Part shown: positions 19,001-29,263 of the stretch, piece by piece
Position numbering within the stretch: position 1 is the first letter of the stretch
Layout: each line of letters starts with the position of its first letter
Assembly: GCA_910586445.1 (NCBI GenBank)
Contig: CAJUHV010000005.1
Location: 6,108 to 70,107 of the forward strand
Direction of reading: 5' to 3'
Length of the DNA stretch: 64,000 bases
DNA from: an uncultured Eubacterium sp.
GTDB lineage: Bacteria; Bacillota; Clostridia; Lachnospirales; Lachnospiraceae
Made by a program: the position numbers and the translations under genes
Notes under the pieces: generated by a model
Database searches by the model: none
What the model was told of the DNA's origin: nothing
What the model saw: only the letters and a program-made list of their open reading frames with translations

Positions 19001-20554
19001 TTATGGTAAAATAACGGTAAATACTATGCTTTCATCGCTGCTGTGCGCCTGTATGCTGCCGCCGTGCAGCTGTACGATCTCTTTTGCAATTGCAAGCCCG
19101 AGCCCTGACCCGCCGGTTGCCGATGTGCGTGAAGAATCTACCCGGAAAAACTGCTCAAAGATATGTGACAGCTTTTCCGGCGGGATTGTCCTGCCATGAT
19201 TGCATACACGGATACGTGTCTCCTGTTCTTCCCTCTCCATAAAAACAGAAATCTCTGTACCCGGATAACTGTAGTTTACCGCATTGCGGATTAAATTATC
19301 AAATACACGCTGCAGTTTATCAGGATCACATGAAAACATAATATCCTGCTGTATCTCCAAATGCCAGCGCAGGCTTTTTTCCGCCAGCACCGGCTCAAAC
19401 TCACTGGCAATCTGCTCAAGCATACGGCTTAAATTTATCAGCTCCATCTCCAGCGTCAGCGCCGTCAGGTTAAACCGGGTAATGTCAAAAAACTCGTTGA
19501 TCAGATCCTCCAGCCTCTCCGCCTTATCCAATGCAATATGTGTATAACGCTCTCGCAGCGGCTCTGAGATCTGCTTTTCATCCTTTAGCAGCGTCAGATA
19601 ACCGATCACGCTTGTAAGCGGTGTTTTTAGGTCATGCGCCAGATAAACAATCAGGTCATTTTTCCGCTGCTCCGCCTCCTTTGCAATGATCGCATTGCGC
19701 AGTGCCTGCTCACGCACCAGATTTAACTCATCCTGCACATTGTGCATTGCTGCCGAAAGCTCAATCGGATCATCCGACGGATGCGCCAGCTTTTTTGAAG
19801 CCGCGATCACCTCATCCAGATACCGCAGCGGCTTTGCCAGATAATAATACGTCACTCCAACTATTATAGTAATGCTTAATGTAAAAAGCACGGGAATCAA
19901 ATTGTCCCATACCATATGTATGACCGGATACAAAAATTCACTGCCATACCATATGCGCCCCTGACAGACCAGCCAGGCAATGAATACCCCGCCATACAGT
20001 ATCACGATCAAAAGCATCATTGTAAAAAGATATTGGAACAGAAGCTGCCCTGCCATAGGACTTCGCTTTCTCCGGCTGTTATCTTTACTCTCATCTGTTT
20101 TTTTGCTTTTTACAGTAGACATTTTGGAAATTATATAGTTATTTATTTTTTCGAATAATCTGTTGTCTGATCGGCTGCCTAATTTGCTGTCTGATCTGTT
20201 ACTTAATGCGCGTTCCCCGCTGCTGTCTGATCGGCTGTTCAAGCTGCTGTCGCAGCTGCCGTCCGATTGATTGTATATCTTACTATATAAATCACGATCT
20301 AATTTTATATTTGATGTATTGTATAACCTGTTATTTGAATCATGATCCGGCTTTTCTTTTGATGGATCGTATAACCTGCCGTTTGAACCGCAGTCCGGCT
20401 TTGCTTTTGATGTACTGCATAAGCTGCCAGATGAATCGTAGTCCGGCTTTGCTTTTGATGTACTGTATAAGCTGCTGTATGAATCGTGATCTGTTGTTTT
20501 ATTTGCTGCATGATCTGTGCTGCTGTTTGATTGATTGTAAAATTTGTTTTTCAA
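19001..20554 (-). CDS. vanS: VanS-like sensor histidine kinase; the listed ORF carries a 144-aa Ser/Asp/Lys-rich repeat N-terminal extension (alternative start ATG at 20122)
   Basis: Two TM helices, then H-box AHDLKTPLTSVIGYL, N-box NLIRNAVNYS, G-box GGSGLGLAIAKEIV. Upstream start options are TTG at 20554 (AAGGAG 12 nt upstream) or ATG at 20122 (no clear RBS). Adjacent to an OmpR-type regulator. Confidence 0.75.
   Translation of the reverse strand: MKNKFYNQSNSSTDHAANKTTDHDSYSSLYSTSKAKPDYDSSGSLCSTSKAKPDCGSNGRLYDPSKEKPDHDSNNRLYNTSNIKLDRDLYSKIYNQSDGSCDSSLNSRSDSSGERALSNRSDSKLGSRSDNRLFEKINNYIISKMSTVKSKKTDESKDNSRRKRSPMAGQLLFQYLFTMMLLIVILYGGVFIAWLVCQGRIWYGSEFLYPVIHMVWDNLIPVLFTLSITIIVGVTYYYLAKPLRYLDEVIAASKKLAHPSDDPIELSAAMHNVQDELNLVREQALRNAIIAKEAEQRKNDLIVYLAHDLKTPLTSVIGYLTLLKDEKQISEPLRERYTHIALDKAERLEDLINEFFDITRFNLTALTLEMELINLSRMLEQIASEFEPVLAEKSLRWHLEIQQDIMFSCDPDKLQRVFDNLIRNAVNYSYPGTEISVFMEREEQETRIRVCNHGRTIPPEKLSHIFEQFFRVDSSRTSATGGSGLGLAIAKEIVQLHGGSIQAHSSDESIVFTVILP
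20309..20500. repeat. four diverged 48-bp tandem repeats (16-codon period) in the 5' part of the vanS ORF
   Basis: Units start at 20309, 20357, 20405 and 20453, each beginning tttgatg... Encodes repeats of the type DYDSSGSLCSTSKAKP. Confidence 0.85.
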
Positions 20555-23744: not shown

Positions 23745-23768
23745 ACTTTTTATAACAGTATTATAAAT

Positions 23769-23814
23769 AAACCATGCTGTCTGTTTTATTTCCCAGACAG
23801 CATGGTTTTTGTTT
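23769..23814. terminator. strong intrinsic terminator between convergent htpG and the GTPase-NYN gene
   Basis: AAACCATGCTGTCTG-N10-CAGACAGCATGGTTT (15-bp perfect arms) followed by TTGTTT. Confidence 0.8.
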
Positions 23815-23835
23815 AAAGTAAAAGTCCCCGACATC

Positions 23836-26712
23836 CTAGACTTTTACACTCTTCTTCCCTTTCTTTTTCTCAAATGCCTCCGCAAACGGCATATTCATCC
23901 CCTGAGGCGGCTGTTCCAGATATTCCTTCTTTATCTTCGTATTTTCCCAGTGCACTTCCTCTTCCAGCTCCCTTGCAGACACCAGCCGGCACCCCTGCCC
24001 ATGTATAATAATCTGCTCCAGCCTGTCGGATGTCGCCACTGTCACCTTGTATTTCCTTCCATATTCATGAGAAAAACGTTCGATATACTGATCCGCTGTC
24101 TCTGCTTCTTTCGTAAATACGACATGTATGTTGTGATAATCATAATACTCCGTCTGATGCCCCACGACCCGGTAGGCATCAAACACTACAATCAGGCTGC
24201 ATTTTTTTAATGCCTGATAGTTGCACATAATATCAAGCAGGCGTCCTCTTGCCCCGTCAATATTGTCTTTTGCAAGATCACTCAGCTCTTTCCATGCAAA
24301 TATAATATTGTATCCATCTACCAGAAAATATTCCTGCTGGTTCTGCTGCTTCCTGCCAGCATCCTGCCTGTTTTTTCTGCCCTTTAAAGCTGTTTGATAA
24401 TCCTGCTCTTCCTGCGTCTTATCCCCCTGCTCTGTTTCCATCTTCTGCGCTGACAGATCCTGCCCGGCATTATCATCCCGGTTTGTGCCGCTGCCCTGCT
24501 CTTTCGTGCCGTAGGTTCTTTTTTTACGATGTGCACCGTTTTTCCTGGGCGTACTTTTGTCCCGTTTATTTGCCAGATAAGTACTGGCGATAATCTTGTC
24601 CACTTCCTCTGTGCCGATATTTACATTACGCACCGAGGCATGTTTTTTCAGCTTCTCTGCCTCTTCTAACAGGCGGGTTTCCTCCGACTTTGGAACAGAC
24701 AATGCACTTTCTAAGTGCATATAGTCTTTGACCTCATACCATTCTACCAAAAATCCTGCTCCATGCGCACAGAAAACAGACGCGGACGGATTCTCCAGAT
24801 CTGCGGATGGATCATAGCCAATGCGTGCAAGCACCTCCTGTGTATTATGGCACGGGGCATAGCCTCTAAACGTACACTGAAGCGTGCCGATTCCTTTTGT
24901 ATATTCTGTTACCTCTTTCTGGTAGCCCCGCATCGTTACTACCGGCGCACTCCCAGTCAGTACGGACATCCCGTTTTCAATCGCAGGCAGTCCAAGCCTG
25001 CCGTGCATATTTTCAATATCAGTCATCGCCCTGCCGACCATCCGCTCCGGCAGCTCCAGATAAAAGTCATAATAAGGCTCAAGCAGCACGTTCTGTGCCT
25101 GCATCAGTCCCTGCCTCACTGCACGGTAAGTAGCCTGACGGAAATCACCGCCCTCGGTATGCTTTAAATGGGCACGTCCTGTCATCAGCGTTATTTTCAT
25201 ATCCGTAAGCACAGATCCGGTAAGAACTCCCTTATGTTCCCGTTCTTTTAAATGCGTCAGAATCAGCCGCTGCCAGTTTCTGTCCAGGATATCTTCACTG
25301 CAGGCAGAAGCAAACTGCATGCCGCTGCCTTCCTCCCCCGGTTCCAGCAGCAGGTGGACTTCCGCATAATGGCGCAGCGGCTCAAAATGTCCGACGCCTT
25401 CTGCCTGATCACTGATCGTTTCTTTATATACGATATTTCCGGCGCCAAATTCTACTACAGTATCAAATCTATTCTTGATCATGCTGGCCAGTATTTCCAG
25501 CTGCACTTCTCCCATCAGCTGCACCTGAATCTCCTGCAGCTGTTCATTCCATACGATATGCAGCTGCGGTTCCTCCTCCTCCAGCTGCCGCAGCTTTGGC
25601 AGCATGACAGCGGCATCCATACCTTCCGTCAGTATGACCTGATACGTCAATACCGGCTCCAGCAGCGGCATGCCGGAATCCGGCTCTATTCCCAGCCCGT
25701 CACCGGGCTTTGTATGCGTCAGCCCTGTCACTGCACAGACTGTACCAGACGGCGCTTCATTGACCGCTTCATATTTTGCACCAGAATAAATGCGTATCTG
25801 ATTGACTTTTTCTTCCCATGTGCCTTCTCCCGTCTCTGCCGGATCATTGGCAGCAGATAAGATTTTTCCTGACAAGGCAGTGCGTACTTTTAAAACGCCC
25901 CCGGTAATTTTCATATAAGTCAGCCGGTTTCCCTGCTCGTCCCTTGCGATCTTAAATACTTTTGCGGCAAATTCTTTCGGATACTGCGGAGTCTGCATAT
26001 ACCTATAAAATCCGTCCAGAAACGCCTCTATTCCCTGCTGCTTTAATGCAGAGCCAAAAAAACATGGAAAGCACAGCCTTTCACGGATCATATTACTGAT
26101 ACATGACTGGTCTATCATCCCCTGATCCAGGTACTGTTCCATAGCCGTCTCGCTGCACATCGCAAGCGCATCATAAAATGCCTCGCTGCCCTGCTCTGTA
26201 AAATCTACGCAGCTGTCGCTTAACCGCTCTTGAAGCTGCGTCAAAAGTGCCTCTTTGTCTGTTCCGTTTTGATCCATTTTATTTATGAACAAAAAAACCG
26301 GAATCTGATACCGGTTCAATAGTCTCCACAATGTCTGTGTATGTCCCTGTATGCCGTCTGCTCCATTGATCAGTAAAACCGCATAATCCAAAACCTGCAG
26401 GGTACGTTCCATTTCTGCCGAAAAGTCTACATGCCCCGGCGTATCCAGCAGTGTAATCTTTAGATCCTTCCACTCAAACAATGCCTGCTTGGAAAATATA
26501 GTAATTCCTCTTGCACGTTCCAGCTCATATGTATCTAAAAAGGCATCCTGATTGTCTACGCGCCCCGGCTTTCGGATCTTTCCGCTTGTATACAGCATTG
26601 CCTCAGACAATGTCGTCTTTCCGGCATCTACATGTGCCAGCAGCGCAATGCTGACATGCCTTGATTTATTGGATAATTTATTTTTAGACGTATCTTCCGT
26701 CGTATCCTGCAT
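23836..26712 (-). CDS. TetM/EF-G-like translational GTPase fused through a charged linker to a C-terminal YacP/Rae1-type NYN ribonuclease domain
   Basis: G1 AHVDAGKTT, G3 DTPGH, G4 NKMD, followed by EF-G-like domains II-V. After an ~80-aa K/R/Q/E-rich linker, the last ~164 aa (about 23839..24330) read LVDGYNIIF...VVFDAY...VVFTKEAETADQYIE...VATSDRLEQ...GQG...SARELEEEV. This is collinear with B. subtilis YacP as recalled. Start set at the ATG at 26712, which follows GGAAGGGA. Confidence 0.8.
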   Translation of the reverse strand: MQDTTEDTSKNKLSNKSRHVSIALLAHVDAGKTTLSEAMLYTSGKIRKPGRVDNQDAFLDTYELERARGITIFSKQALFEWKDLKITLLDTPGHVDFSAEMERTLQVLDYAVLLINGADGIQGHTQTLWRLLNRYQIPVFLFINKMDQNGTDKEALLTQLQERLSDSCVDFTEQGSEAFYDALAMCSETAMEQYLDQGMIDQSCISNMIRERLCFPCFFGSALKQQGIEAFLDGFYRYMQTPQYPKEFAAKVFKIARDEQGNRLTYMKITGGVLKVRTALSGKILSAANDPAETGEGTWEEKVNQIRIYSGAKYEAVNEAPSGTVCAVTGLTHTKPGDGLGIEPDSGMPLLEPVLTYQVILTEGMDAAVMLPKLRQLEEEEPQLHIVWNEQLQEIQVQLMGEVQLEILASMIKNRFDTVVEFGAGNIVYKETISDQAEGVGHFEPLRHYAEVHLLLEPGEEGSGMQFASACSEDILDRNWQRLILTHLKEREHKGVLTGSVLTDMKITLMTGRAHLKHTEGGDFRQATYRAVRQGLMQAQNVLLEPYYDFYLELPERMVGRAMTDIENMHGRLGLPAIENGMSVLTGSAPVVTMRGYQKEVTEYTKGIGTLQCTFRGYAPCHNTQEVLARIGYDPSADLENPSASVFCAHGAGFLVEWYEVKDYMHLESALSVPKSEETRLLEEAEKLKKHASVRNVNIGTEEVDKIIASTYLANKRDKSTPRKNGAHRKKRTYGTKEQGSGTNRDDNAGQDLSAQKMETEQGDKTQEEQDYQTALKGRKNRQDAGRKQQNQQEYFLVDGYNIIFAWKELSDLAKDNIDGARGRLLDIMCNYQALKKCSLIVVFDAYRVVGHQTEYYDYHNIHVVFTKEAETADQYIERFSHEYGRKYKVTVATSDRLEQIIIHGQGCRLVSARELEEEVHWENTKIKKEYLEQPPQGMNMPFAEAFEKKKGKKSVKV

Positions 26713-27134
26713 AAAAATATCCCTTCCTATTCCTGTAATGTATATTATGCGCTGCGCAGTTTTGATAAATAATTCACTAATATGTGATTCTTTTGACACA
26801 ATCCCTTTATCACATACCTTTGGGCGCATTATCAAATATTTTTATGGCACTTTTACGACACCGCTTTAAATTTTCAATTTCCTACGACAATATCTTATGC
26901 CATTTTACACATCTATTCTTTTCCCTATTAATGATTTCCTCACGCAGACTCCTTTCCAAAAGAGCCTGATATGGTTTTAATTTACCACATACATGCTCAA
27001 TTTGCAACAATTGACATCTGGATCGAATAAATTCATATGCAGCTGAGCTGTCAGATCTCAATGTTTTGCGATATGTACTTCTCAAACCCTTGTATATAAG
27101 GTGTCAATTAAAATGATACAACATCAATATCTCT

Positions 27135-27338
27135 TTGCTGGATGAAGTTGTCGACTTGCTGCGTCAGGGCTGGCAGCTCGAAGAACGCTGCCGCGACCAT
27201 GGGCTGACCGGAGACCTTTCAGGTTTTCGGGAATGCCATATCAAGCCGGACTGGCTGTTAATCTATCTCATCGAAAATGATATTTTAACGCTGACCTTAA
27301 TCGATACCGGTTCACACTCAGATCTTTTCAAGAAATAA
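27135..27338 (+). pseudogene. N-terminally truncated YafQ/RelE-type toxin remnant
   Basis: RDHGLTGDLSGFRECHIKPDWLLIYLIENDILTLTLIDTGSHSDLFKK parallels the intact toxin at 60818..61090. About 25 N-terminal residues and the antitoxin partner are missing, and the only start is TTG. Confidence 0.6.
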
Positions 27339-27532
27339 TGCACAGGCAGGTAATTCCATCTTTGTTGGGTTTCCTGCCTGTTACTTTTTCTGTCAGCGGC
27401 AGTTTGTGGTGTACTTCTTCCATCAGCCGCAGCAATGTTTTGCGGACAGACAGTTTTTTCAAAAATATCAATATCGTCCCAATTTATCGCACACAGCTCT
27501 CCTGCACGTATTCCTGTAAAAAGACAAAGCAA
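27339..27532 (-). pseudogene. tyrosine recombinase (phage-integrase family) fragment, frameshifted and truncated
   Basis: LFTGIRAGELCAINWDDIDIFEK matches the start of the integrase catalytic domain. The expected continuation (KLSVRKTLL...) appears only in another frame after an A-run. The fragment abuts the YafQ remnant. Confidence 0.45.
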
Positions 27533-27586: not shown

Positions 27587-29263
27587 TCATCCCTTTTTTA
27601 CCAGACATTTCTTCTGGAAAAATGCAATCCCCAGCCGGCCTGCTTTCTTATATCCATCACGTTCCACTTTTTCTGCATATTGTTTCTCCCTGATCTGGGA
27701 GAGCGCTTCTTCGCATGCGTTCTCCATCTGATCTTCATAATACGTTCGCTTTGCCTCCAGCACAACAGCCCTGCGGTTTCTTCGGTCTTTTACAACAAGA
27801 TCGGAACGTCCAAGGCCATTTTCATAATTGGATTCCACGCGGTACCCTGCGTTGGAAAACAACCCGGTCAGAAATGCATGGTAAAAACTCTCGGCATAAT
27901 CATGGTAACTGATGGTATCAAACAGCAGATCTGAGATCAGCTCGGTCAGCCGCTGTGCATTTTCATCCCACAATGCTGCAAATAATTCATTCCGGTCTTT
28001 TTGGGCGGTGGTTTCCATCAGCCACGCTTTGACGCTTTTTTTGAAAATTCCGAGAACCTCTTTGTTGGGAACCTTCAGCGCGTACTGACCGGGCAGCAGC
28101 TGCAGGCCGGAAATCTCATCCGGGCGCAGCCTTGTCAGATAACCCGTCAGATACAGAAGGCTCCATAGATTTTCTTCCGAACTTTCCAGTACGTCATAGG
28201 TGAGATTTTCTTCAACGTGCTCTACGATATGTTTCCCGGCGAGCAAGGTTTCAAATTTGTCATTTATATCAAAATCCGTTCTTTTTAAAAAGGTACGGAT
28301 GATGGAATTATCACTCGTATTTTCCCAGAAATTCTTTGGCTTTGAGTCCGGATTCAGAAGCAGGTTCTGCACATGGTTCATCACATCCCAGGGACAGTAA
28401 ACGTCGAAATCTCCGAAATGGTATCCGTCGTACCATTCCCTGACCTCCTCCGCATAAGGCGCAAGACCCGTATCCGCAAGCAGACGGTTGACTTCGTCCT
28501 GTGTGAAACCGAAGCATTCATTGAGCTGCGTATCGGAAATGGTATCCGATACAAAATTATTCGTTCCTGTGAAAATACTTTCTTTTGCAATTTGAAGACA
28601 GCCTGTAATCACTGCAAACTCCAGTGAATTATTATCCTTAATGACCTGCATGACCCCCTTTATGGCATCCTGCATTTCACGATAGTATCCTTTTTCGCTT
28701 GCCTTAGCCAGCGGGACATCATATTCATCAATAATCAGGATTACGGATTTTTGGTAGTGCAATTCCATAAGCTGCGTCAGCTTCAGCAAACTGTTTTTGA
28801 TGCCTTTTAGATCCGCTTTTTCCGCTGCTGTTCTGTGAAACTGTTCTTTGTCCAGAGGCTGGATGCGCTCGCTTTCTGTCAGGTAAATGTGCTTTTTGTA
28901 CAGCTCGGCAATGACAGATGCGAGCTGTGCGTATGCGCCGGAAAAGTTCAGCCCGTCCACACTTCGAAACGACAGAAACAATGTGGGATATTGATTCATC
29001 CATTGCCTGCAGAGCTCTTCATTTCTCATAACAGACAGCCCCTCGAATAAGGCGAGGCTGTTTTTCTGTATGTCAAAAAATTCTGACAGCATACTCATAC
29101 CAAGTGTTTTTCCGAAACGGCGGGGCCTTGTGATCAATGTGACTTTTGTACTTTGTGTTTTTAATAATTGTTCAATCAGAGAGGACTTATCAATAAAGTA
29201 GCTGCCTTTTCTTCTAATCTCGGCAAAGTTAGAGGTCCCGACAGGGATATTAATGGTATTCAT
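27587..29263 (-). CDS. AAA-ATPase_like (DUF1703-type) N-terminal domain with a PD-(D/E)XK (PDDEXK_9-like) C-terminal domain
   Basis: N-terminus IPVGTSNFAEIRRKGSYFIDKSSLIEQLL...RPRRFGKT is characteristic of this family. C-terminus reads GRSDLVVKD...VLEAK. AAGGAG RBS. Confidence 0.75.
   Translation of the reverse strand: MNTINIPVGTSNFAEIRRKGSYFIDKSSLIEQLLKTQSTKVTLITRPRRFGKTLGMSMLSEFFDIQKNSLALFEGLSVMRNEELCRQWMNQYPTLFLSFRSVDGLNFSGAYAQLASVIAELYKKHIYLTESERIQPLDKEQFHRTAAEKADLKGIKNSLLKLTQLMELHYQKSVILIIDEYDVPLAKASEKGYYREMQDAIKGVMQVIKDNNSLEFAVITGCLQIAKESIFTGTNNFVSDTISDTQLNECFGFTQDEVNRLLADTGLAPYAEEVREWYDGYHFGDFDVYCPWDVMNHVQNLLLNPDSKPKNFWENTSDNSIIRTFLKRTDFDINDKFETLLAGKHIVEHVEENLTYDVLESSEENLWSLLYLTGYLTRLRPDEISGLQLLPGQYALKVPNKEVLGIFKKSVKAWLMETTAQKDRNELFAALWDENAQRLTELISDLLFDTISYHDYAESFYHAFLTGLFSNAGYRVESNYENGLGRSDLVVKDRRNRRAVVLEAKRTYYEDQMENACEEALSQIREKQYAEKVERDGYKKAGRLGIAFFQKKCLVKKG

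Follow-up and report, generated by a model that had tools for sequence, protein, structure and literature searches.

A Tet-like translational GTPase fused to a Rae1-type NYN nuclease is widespread in gut Clostridia

A gene at positions 23836–26712 of a 64,000-nt stretch of DNA from an uncultured Eubacterium sp. of the Lachnospiraceae (contig CAJUHV010000005.1, assembly GCA_910586445.1), the whole of which is referred to in the following as the window, encodes a translational GTPase of the EF-G/Tet type joined in one polypeptide to a Rae1-type (YacP) NYN nuclease domain. The gene is a member of a known, functionally uncharacterised fusion family, and it probably serves delivery to stalled or collided ribosomes rather than tetracycline protection. 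The family was described by Atkinson in 2015 (BMC Genomics, PMC4342817) from ten Clostridiales species, with a proposal that RNase activity be tested, and by Matelska et al. in 2017 (Nucleic Acids Research (NAR), PMC5499597) as “TetM-NYN_YacP fusion proteins” in Clostridia; both left its function open. The window gene has the identical architecture and does not differ from these proteins in kind. New here are the scale of the family (at least 585 species-level hits), the loss of the TetM drug loop, the domain IV tip and C-terminal extension that mark the GTPase subfamily, its unfused paralogues, the constraint on the linker and the lack of a gene context.

Domain architecture of the fusion protein

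The gene is a single uninterrupted open reading frame (ORF) of 958 codons plus stop, with no internal stop codon or frameshift on translation, as had been stated in a first-pass annotation made by a model from the letters of this DNA; the strand, which that annotation left unstated, is minus. A database cluster representative of 997 amino acids (aa), P0001, was 100% identical over the whole query. Six Pfam domains were found in the one ORF, all above their gathering scores, and the protein was divided as follows, with structure predictions from AlphaFold2 (AF2):

23836–26712, minus strand: complete coding sequence, Tet/EF-G-like GTPase fused to a Rae1-type NYN domain (continuous translation, Pfam, match to P0001)
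25993–26661, minus strand: G domain (GTP_EFTU), aa 18–240, with a short G' insertion as in TetM (Pfam, E 8e-52)
25693–25971, minus strand: domain II (EF-G_D2), aa 248–340 (Pfam)
25444–25659, minus strand: domain III (EFG_III), aa 352–423 (Pfam)
25093–25437, minus strand: domain IV (EFG_IV), aa 426–540, with family-specific, near-invariant tip loops (Pfam, conservation counts, alignment)
25138–25179, minus strand: domain IV tip loop, aa 512–525, at the position of TetM loop III (gap-free MAFFT and BLASTP alignment)
24841–25089, minus strand: domain V (EFG_C), aa 542–624 (Pfam)
24709–24861, minus strand: C-terminal GTPase extension, aa 618–668, near-invariant in fused and unfused relatives and absent from TetM
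24331–24708, minus strand: linker, aa 669–794, with a variable helix (677–690), a conserved helix and a disordered K/R/E/Q-rich stretch of ≈75 aa (AF2, family lengths, composition)
24565–24618, minus strand: conserved short helix within the linker, aa 699–716, TEEVDKIIASTYLANKR (family conservation, AF2)
23902–24330, minus strand: NYN_YacP (Rae1) nuclease domain, aa 795–937 (Pfam, 5MQ8 alignment, Asp conservation)
23839–23901, minus strand: C-terminal tail, aa 938–958, a helix and the basic end EKKKGKKSVKV (AF2 helix 942–952, comparison with standalone tails)

Every GTPase and YacP motif quoted in the first-pass annotation was present. The motifs of the G domain are G1 AHVDAGKTT (26–34), G2 RGIT, G3 DTPGH (90–94, with the catalytic His94), G4 NKMD (144–147) and G5 SAL. 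The family alignment comprised the window protein, its 150 best representatives, authentic Tet(M) from pCTN1046 and one unfused relative, and domain IV was also aligned to S. aureus EF-G; conservation counts refer to 147 diverse fusion representatives. The G1–G5 motifs and the catalytic His were kept in 143–147 of the 147 (His94 specifically in 143 of 144), and the GTPase half looks catalytically intact.

The GTPase module is 25–29% identical to EF-G and Tet(M) and equally distant from both. Its domain IV has loops of TetM-like length with tip residues of its own, GHFEPLRHY (aa 441–449) and H-x-K-H-T-E-G-G-D-F-R (aa 515–525), which are near-invariant in the fusion family. In the AF2 model (predicted local distance difference test score (pLDDT) 77.9), the GTPase module superimposed on ribosome-bound EF-G with a template modelling (TM) score of 0.78 and a root mean square deviation of ≈4 Å, compared with a TM score of only ≈0.6 for the free EF-G crystal forms; the module is predicted to have the shape of ribosome-bound EF-G. 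A first AF2 run on a shallow alignment (55 sequences at ≥62% identity) had given a poor inter-domain arrangement. Both this arrangement and the fold of the extension were mended because unfused paralogues were added to the alignment: the extension, predicted as a helix, a β-hairpin and a short helix, rose from a pLDDT below 50 with the shallow alignment to ≈81–93 with the deeper one.

At the other end of the protein, the NYN_YacP assignment of the first-pass annotation was borne out by Pfam (PF05991, aa 797–937, E 5e-50, 170 bits against a cutoff of 24.6) and by a gap-free alignment to residues 3–138 of the crystallised B. subtilis YacP/Rae1 (5MQ8/5MQ9, E 6e-24). The motifs of this part are LVDGYN (797–802), VVFDA (842–846), TAD..IE (872–878), ATSD (893–896), GQG (905–907) and SAREL (912–916), and residues D799, D845, D874 and D896 correspond to B. 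subtilis D7, D53, D81 and D104. The four aspartates, whose replacement throughout the family would have spoken against a nuclease, were kept in 145–146 of the 147 representatives. NYN_YacP proteins are defined by a “GYN” motif after the first Asp and by at least four active-site Asp (Matelska 2017, PMC5499597); the motif is present in the window protein as D799-G-Y-N802 and is invariant in the 147 fusion proteins. The NYN half, too, looks catalytically intact, so that one polypeptide appears to carry the catalytic residues of both halves (G1–G5, His94 and the four Asp).

Conserved basic residues on a pair of C-terminal helices are a feature of Rae1/YacP enzymes; in the window protein, AF2 predicted helices at 913–933 and 942–952. 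The tail that contains the second helix matches the basic C-terminal tail of standalone Rae1 (compared with the B. subtilis, C. difficile and A. noterae tails). Many fusion members keep the tail pattern L..L...E.iR.G of the B. subtilis, C. difficile and Acetoanaerobium proteins, and about two thirds of the fusion representatives have lost the distal E..RR motif of the standalone enzymes, which is consistent with a reduced need for Rae1's own ribosome contacts. Judged by these comparisons, the appended nuclease appears to be a whole Rae1, in which the conserved core of the standalone enzyme is kept almost unchanged.

The two halves are further apart than the ≈80-aa linker given in the first-pass annotation. 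Domain V and the NYN domain are separated by about 170 aa, which consist of a conserved 50-aa extension, two helices (one of them conserved) and a disordered stretch of ≈75 aa. The extension follows the pattern Y-x-x-C-H-N ... Y-D-P ... D ... S-V-F-C-x-H-G-A-G ... V-x-W ... V ... M-H and had no sequence match in the PDB. A zinc site formed by C621, H622, C648 and H650 was considered and rejected, since the full CHCH set occurs in only 62 of the 147 members and the cysteines have been lost independently.

The conserved linker helix has the family pattern ≈S/T-x-E-E-I/L-D/E-x-I-F/M-x-R-T/E-Y/F-G, appearing elsewhere as ...EELEEIMxREFGPIRR or ...EEIEEIFxRTYG, with E703 and I707 invariant and D705, T711, A714 and N715 nearly so (family alignment A1). 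The motif is also present in distant members, and AF2 predicted a helix at 701–714 with low confidence. The disordered stretch (aa 716–790) is variable and slightly basic, with an AF2 pLDDT of 26–33 for aa 720–790. Between the extension and the start of the NYN domain, linker length among 118 members had a minimum of 69 aa, a median of 97 and a maximum of 199. The sequence of the tether varies, but its minimum length (≈69 aa) is kept.

Spread of the fusion and its unfused relatives

The first-pass annotation had left it to database searches to say how far the fusion extends, and these showed that gut Clostridia carry it widely. Among 5.8 billion proteins searched, more than 120 clusters matched at 59–77% identity, nearly all with the full GTPase Pfam set and all with PF05991. 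In a scan of one genome per GTDB species, the number of confirmed relatives was at least 585. We examined the 80 best loci; 79 of these matched strongly, and each was one ORF covering both halves. The closest loci came from Eubacterium and Lachnospiraceae metagenome-assembled genomes, and the 80 also included Roseburia, Enterocloster, Eisenbergiella, Kineothrix, Anaerostipes, Cellulosilyticum, Clostridium carboxidivorans, C. thailandense, Desulfosporosinus, Anaerovoracaceae and Acetivibrio. The family is also found in Monoglobus. About 146 of the best 150 representatives in a HMMER search of 1.84 billion 50%-identity representatives were of fusion length, and GTPase-only relatives first turned up at ≈680 bits. 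That the fusion has been kept as one ORF across species and clusters suggests selection on the combination.

A tblastn search of plasmid records showed that the GTPase part also occurs alone. A 644-aa protein on a megaplasmid of L. salivarius matched residues 11–668 of the fusion at 49% identity and stops exactly after the extension. When this protein was used as the query, the unfused form was found to be common and chromosomal in the Lactobacillaceae, in the genera Companilactobacillus, Levilactobacillus, Paucilactobacillus, Pediococcus, Limosilactobacillus and Lactiplantibacillus. These “Tet-like” GTPases (640–660 aa; for example, LSL_RS10690 of pMP118) are 49–53% identical to the GTPase part of the fusion and share with it the loop-I GHFEPLRHY, the G-G-D-F-R tip and an extension that ends where the linker of the fusion starts, but they lack the NYN domain. 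Their annotation is inconsistent and ranges from EF-G through TetM family to GTP-binding protein. The idea of the first-pass annotation that relatives might carry the two halves as adjacent genes found no example: no NYN gene was adjacent in any of the five unfused loci that we looked at (one on the L. salivarius megaplasmid, three chromosomal loci of Lactobacillaceae and one on a metagenomic contig). From these comparisons, the GTPase subfamily appears to exist in its own right, and the version in Clostridia to be one that has a whole Rae1 appended.

Two of the unfused loci had neighbours of some interest. On L. salivarius pMP118 (L081, 3408–5926), the paralogue is divergent from genes for a second rpsN (S14) and a “putative metal homeostasis protein”, an arrangement that recalls zinc-regulated ribosomal paralogue loci and that was not seen at the other unfused loci inspected. 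On a Levilactobacillus chromosome (L085, 5001–8309), the gene of an RsgA-type ribosome-biogenesis GTPase follows the paralogue on the same strand, which may be a coincidence.

More than 87% of Firmicutes genomes contain Rae1. The standalone yacP gene belongs to a cysS-mrnC-rlmB-yacP-sigH operon (PMC5499597), and the canonical standalone loci that we inspected showed the same cluster. The matches listed in a search with a standalone-YacP profile were dominated by Peptostreptococcaceae and Bacillus. Several PLSDB “plasmids” (NZ_OY725731/36/39/42, NZ_CP149721, NZ_AP028965 and NZ_CP154629) are pieces of chromosomes or whole chromosomes that carry the core genes cysS-mrnC-rlmB-yacP-sigH-tuf-rpmG-secE-nusG; examples are C. 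difficile records of 96–150 kb, a 129-kb B. subtilis record, a 2.6-Mb Acetoanaerobium record and at least 18 Monoglobus “plasmids”.

Proposed function and competing explanations

Rae1 stands at the centre of a Gram-positive collision-rescue pathway, CART (2025 NAR paper, PMC12407103; 2026 preprint, PMC13622287). The first-pass annotation had it cutting mRNA in the A site, but the authors of the docking model behind this view have withdrawn it, and cleavage is placed 12 nt upstream of the A site and needs translating or stalled ribosomes (PMC12407103). According to the preprint of September 2026, Rae1 acts on collided ribosomes and feeds trans-translation by tmRNA, and there is no ribosome-bound structure of Rae1 because its binding is transient (PMC13622287).

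Our proposal, to which we give about an even chance, is that the fusion is a self-targeting, cis-tethered Rae1, whose GTPase takes the nuclease to stalled or collided ribosomes. The N-terminal EF-G/Tet-type GTPase in its GTP form would dock at the ribosomal factor-binding site, where the domain IV tip and the subfamily's C-terminal extension would probe the decoding centre (A site). This probing would restrict binding to stalled or blocked ribosomes, such as those whose A site is empty or, in a collision, the trailing ribosome with its translocation blocked. Domain IV of EF-G and TetM itself occupies the A site, so that a tethered NYN domain could not be there at the same time. Of the first-pass suggestion of a GTPase-delivered, ribosome-targeted nuclease, the delivery is still the best reading, whereas the A-site geometry fails on this point. 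Instead, the NYN domain, held by a flexible tether at least ≈69 residues long, would make its cut in the mRNA at the ribosomal edge. In EF-G, what follows domain V packs back onto domain IV; if the corresponding segment does so here, the tether would start near the decoding region and not at the stalk base.

In the most economical geometry, the NYN domain would sit where the mRNA enters the bound ribosome. When ribosomes collide, the entry side of the trailing ribosome would face the exit side of the ribosome ahead, which is the inferred place of cleavage by B. subtilis Rae1 (−12), and the trailing ribosome would be in a translocation-blocked state that resembles an EF-G substrate. Alternatively, the leading ribosome could be the one bound, with the nuclease reaching around, an arrangement that could physically work. 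GTP hydrolysis would then release the factor, and the truncated mRNA would feed ribosome rescue by tmRNA. Here we infer the ribosome-state specificity, mRNA as the substrate, the position of cleavage and the link to tmRNA.

A broader, Rosetta-stone version of this proposal, which we regard as doubtful, is that the Tet-like GTPase subfamily, defined by GHFEPLRHY, the H-x-KHTEGGDFR domain IV tip and the 50-aa extension, would be dedicated to sensing ribosomes that have stalled or collided and would have Rae1 as its partner, in cis in the Clostridia and in trans in the Lactobacillaceae, where Rae1 would presumably be free.

Several points weigh against delivery of the nuclease to stalled or collided ribosomes. 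The unfused paralogues of the Lactobacillaceae suggest that the GTPase subfamily has a function without a covalently attached nuclease. There was no conserved gene neighbourhood among the 80 loci, and specifically no conserved smpB, ssrA or rqc neighbours: the commonest upstream neighbour stood directly upstream in 8 of the 75 loci with an upstream ORF and anywhere in 11 of the 80, and htpG lay directly downstream and convergent in five loci and was present in seven. AF2 gave no confident contact among the NYN domain, the linker helix and the GTPase. We infer, and purely so, both the state of the bound ribosome and the place where the NYN domain would land, and the substrate of the latter could be rRNA or tRNA instead of mRNA. 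As to a standalone Rae1 beside the fusion in the same genome, there is a partial indication from one assembly, that of Monoglobus pectinilyticus (PLSDB “plasmids”, with at least one piece, “plasmid 1”, missing), in which the fusion was present, no other NYN match was found, and rlmB is followed by a phosphoesterase gene where yacP would be expected. Finally, we found no functional study of the fusion in the literature, although the Rae1 literature may hold other mentions; it goes unmentioned in the two latest papers on Rae1. To that extent the first-pass annotation was right to know of no characterised example, but the architecture itself had been published in 2015 and 2017 (PMC4342817, PMC5499597).

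A reading of the protein as a ribosomal protection protein against tetracycline or another A-site antibiotic, with the nuclease as a second resistance mechanism, was raised by Atkinson in 2015 (PMC4342817). The likeness to Tet(M) and Tet(O) is real: the protein is a five-domain EF-G paralogue with a reduced G' and loops of TetM length, its relatives are annotated TetM/TetW/TetO/TetS, and its best NCBIfam match is tet_protect (NF012153), which it matches over its full length. However, the score of 411.7 bits is far under the cutoff of 775, tet_protect_M_W (278 against 1100) and Tet(M) (240 against 1420) fall short as well, and so does the EF-G family TIGR00484 (302 against 659), where the match is split in two around the shortened G'. 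Identity to Tet(M) is 29%. In TetM, Pro509 sits in the tetracycline site against C1054 (PMC8161019). The TetM loop Y506-Y-S-P509-V-S aligns without gaps to A514-H-L-K517-H-T of the window protein, so that the entire YYSPVS loop is replaced by A-H-x-K-H-T and Lys517 takes the position of Pro509; in this column, Lys occurs in 137 of the 147 members, and the three commonest residues do not include Pro. TetM has a short C-terminal helix after domain V. This tail does not align with the window protein, which has the different, conserved 50-aa extension. Upstream of the gene, a permissive-threshold Rfam search and a promoter/terminator scan showed no tet(M)-type leader peptide or attenuator, nor a riboswitch or T-box. 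The fusion gene is chromosomal, with varied neighbours in many Clostridia, and was not found on conjugative (Tn916-like) elements. By its defining sequence features, the protein does not appear to be a tetracycline-resistance determinant, in agreement with the first-pass view that it is not a simple protection gene, and we consider this explanation quite improbable.

The proposal that the NYN domain cleaves rRNA, or tRNA in the A or P site, in late rRNA maturation, quality control or the dismantling of ribosomes in stress, stationary phase or sporulation deserves more weight, although we think it unlikely. The operon of standalone yacP includes enzymes that process or modify rRNA (PMC5499597), and a tether anchored at the factor site would leave many rRNA elements within reach; against this, the standalone core is kept almost unchanged in the fusion, which argues for the same substrate chemistry. 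Much further down the scale is a toxin-like or anti-phage abortive-infection effector that would cut RNA on ribosomes when triggered. The ribosome-dependent RNases RelE and YafQ do act as toxins, the preprint speculates that Rae1 could act against phage mRNAs (PMC13622287), and remnants of a YafQ toxin and an integrase lie just upstream in the window. These pieces are truncated and specific to the window, however; no PADLOC defence model matched the fusion protein, the 80 loci showed no conserved antitoxin or sensor partner, and slow evolution in hundreds of species, with one marginal match only in viral contigs, makes such a role very improbable. That the fusion is an artefact, either a pseudogene or two neighbouring genes run together through an error in sequencing or assembly, has practically no chance, since there is no stop codon or frameshift, both halves are under strong purifying selection, and the same ORF is present in independent isolates and complete genomes, among them Clostridium carboxidivorans P7, Desulfosporosinus paludis, Enterocloster aldenensis and Kineothrix alysoides.

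Kept in hundreds of Clostridia from the gut and the environment, the fusion would be an independent argument from evolution that Rae1 acts beside the factor-binding (A-site) side of the ribosome, and it offers a handle for trapping the nuclease on ribosomes, with GDPNP or a His94 mutant. If the broader version with a sensor GTPase is true, bacteria would have in it a counterpart of the no-go-decay and rescue systems in which a GTPase makes the delivery, and the tether would show the place of Rae1 relative to the factor-binding site and trap the transient Rae1–ribosome complex for structure determination. The GTPases also matter as an uncharacterised, non-resistance “Tet-like” family that is mislabelled as tetracycline resistance or EF-G, which inflates resistome counts in gut metagenomes. 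Fused and unfused members alike are annotated as “TetM/TetW/TetO/TetS family”, “Tetracycline resistance protein TetM from transposon Tn916” or “elongation factor G”. Both kinds lack the loop that defines TetM and score under the curated cutoffs, and such annotation is a likely source of false resistome calls.

The locus and comparison with known systems

In the window, the gene stands alone, with its own ribosome-binding site (RBS) and terminator and no conserved neighbours. Its signals are as follows:

26721–26727, minus strand: Shine–Dalgarno-like GGAAGGG, 8 nt upstream of the ATG at 26712 (read from the sequence)
23760–23808, minus strand: intrinsic terminator, a perfect 15-bp hairpin followed by UUUAUUUAU, directly 3' of the stop codon (fold −28.2 kcal/mol, z = −6.1)

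The start at ATG 26712 agrees with the N-termini of the homologues. The public call P0001 begins ≈39 codons upstream of this likely start (26713–26835, minus strand). Alternative upstream starts (ATG at about 26829, TTG at 26835) have no Shine–Dalgarno-like site, and the 997–999-aa gene call (P0001, from TTG 26835) is probably over-extended, because it has no RBS and overshoots the N-termini of the homologues, in which the extra residues have no counterpart. The terminator lies between the fusion gene and the convergent htpG. Weak Rfam matches to miRNA precursors over the hairpin (23753–23824; mir-122, 27 bits) were dismissed as false positives caused by the long perfect stem.

The other neighbours of the gene are a two-component system, a truncated YafQ toxin gene with an integrase fragment, and an AAA-ATPase/PDDEXK_9 gene. 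The YafQ/RelE-type toxin ORF (27135–27338, plus strand) is truncated at its N-terminus, covering profile positions 26–88 of 88 (E 5e-25), and overlaps a short tyrosine-integrase fragment (27263–27532, minus strand); together, they look like the decayed remnants of a toxin–antitoxin system or mobile element. The next gene (27587–29263, minus strand) encodes a 558-aa protein with a predicted AAA-ATPase_like N-terminal domain and a PD-(D/E)XK (PDDEXK_9) C-terminal domain, for which there was no PADLOC match. The histidine kinase of the two-component system (19001–20554, minus strand) has an N-terminal region of ≈130 aa of degenerate repeats rich in S, D, K and N (YSTSKAKPDYDSSGSLCSTSKAKPDCGSNGRLYDPSKEKPDHDSNNRLYNTSN), which comes before the membrane and HisKA/HATPase parts. 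A signal of horizontal transfer was sought and rejected, the GC profile being unremarkable, and there was no second NYN domain or translational GTPase anywhere in the 64-kb window.

Of the known proteins, B. subtilis Rae1 (YacP) is the closest to the nuclease half. The two have in common the NYN_YacP fold, the D-G-Y-N motif, the four catalytic Asp, ≈44% identity over 127–136 residues and, by prediction, the C-terminal helices. Rae1, however, is a separate protein of 170 aa whose gene lies in the cysS-mrnC-rlmB-rae1-sigH operon, and it binds ribosomes on its own and transiently, whereas the domain in the fusion is covalently tethered to a GTPase and its locus is unrelated and variable (here, htpG and mobile-element remnants).

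By analogy only, the fusion would share its logic with E. coli SmrB and yeast Cue2, in which a stalled or collided ribosome attracts a nuclease that cuts the mRNA at the ribosome boundary and thereby sets off rescue (PMC13622287), although the nuclease folds are unrelated (SMR and NYN, respectively). In Hbs1–Dom34, likewise an analogy, delivery is performed by a translational GTPase, as proposed here for the fusion (PMC13622287; PMC4342817).

To our knowledge, no known collision or no-go-decay system has a GTPase and a nuclease fused in one chain.

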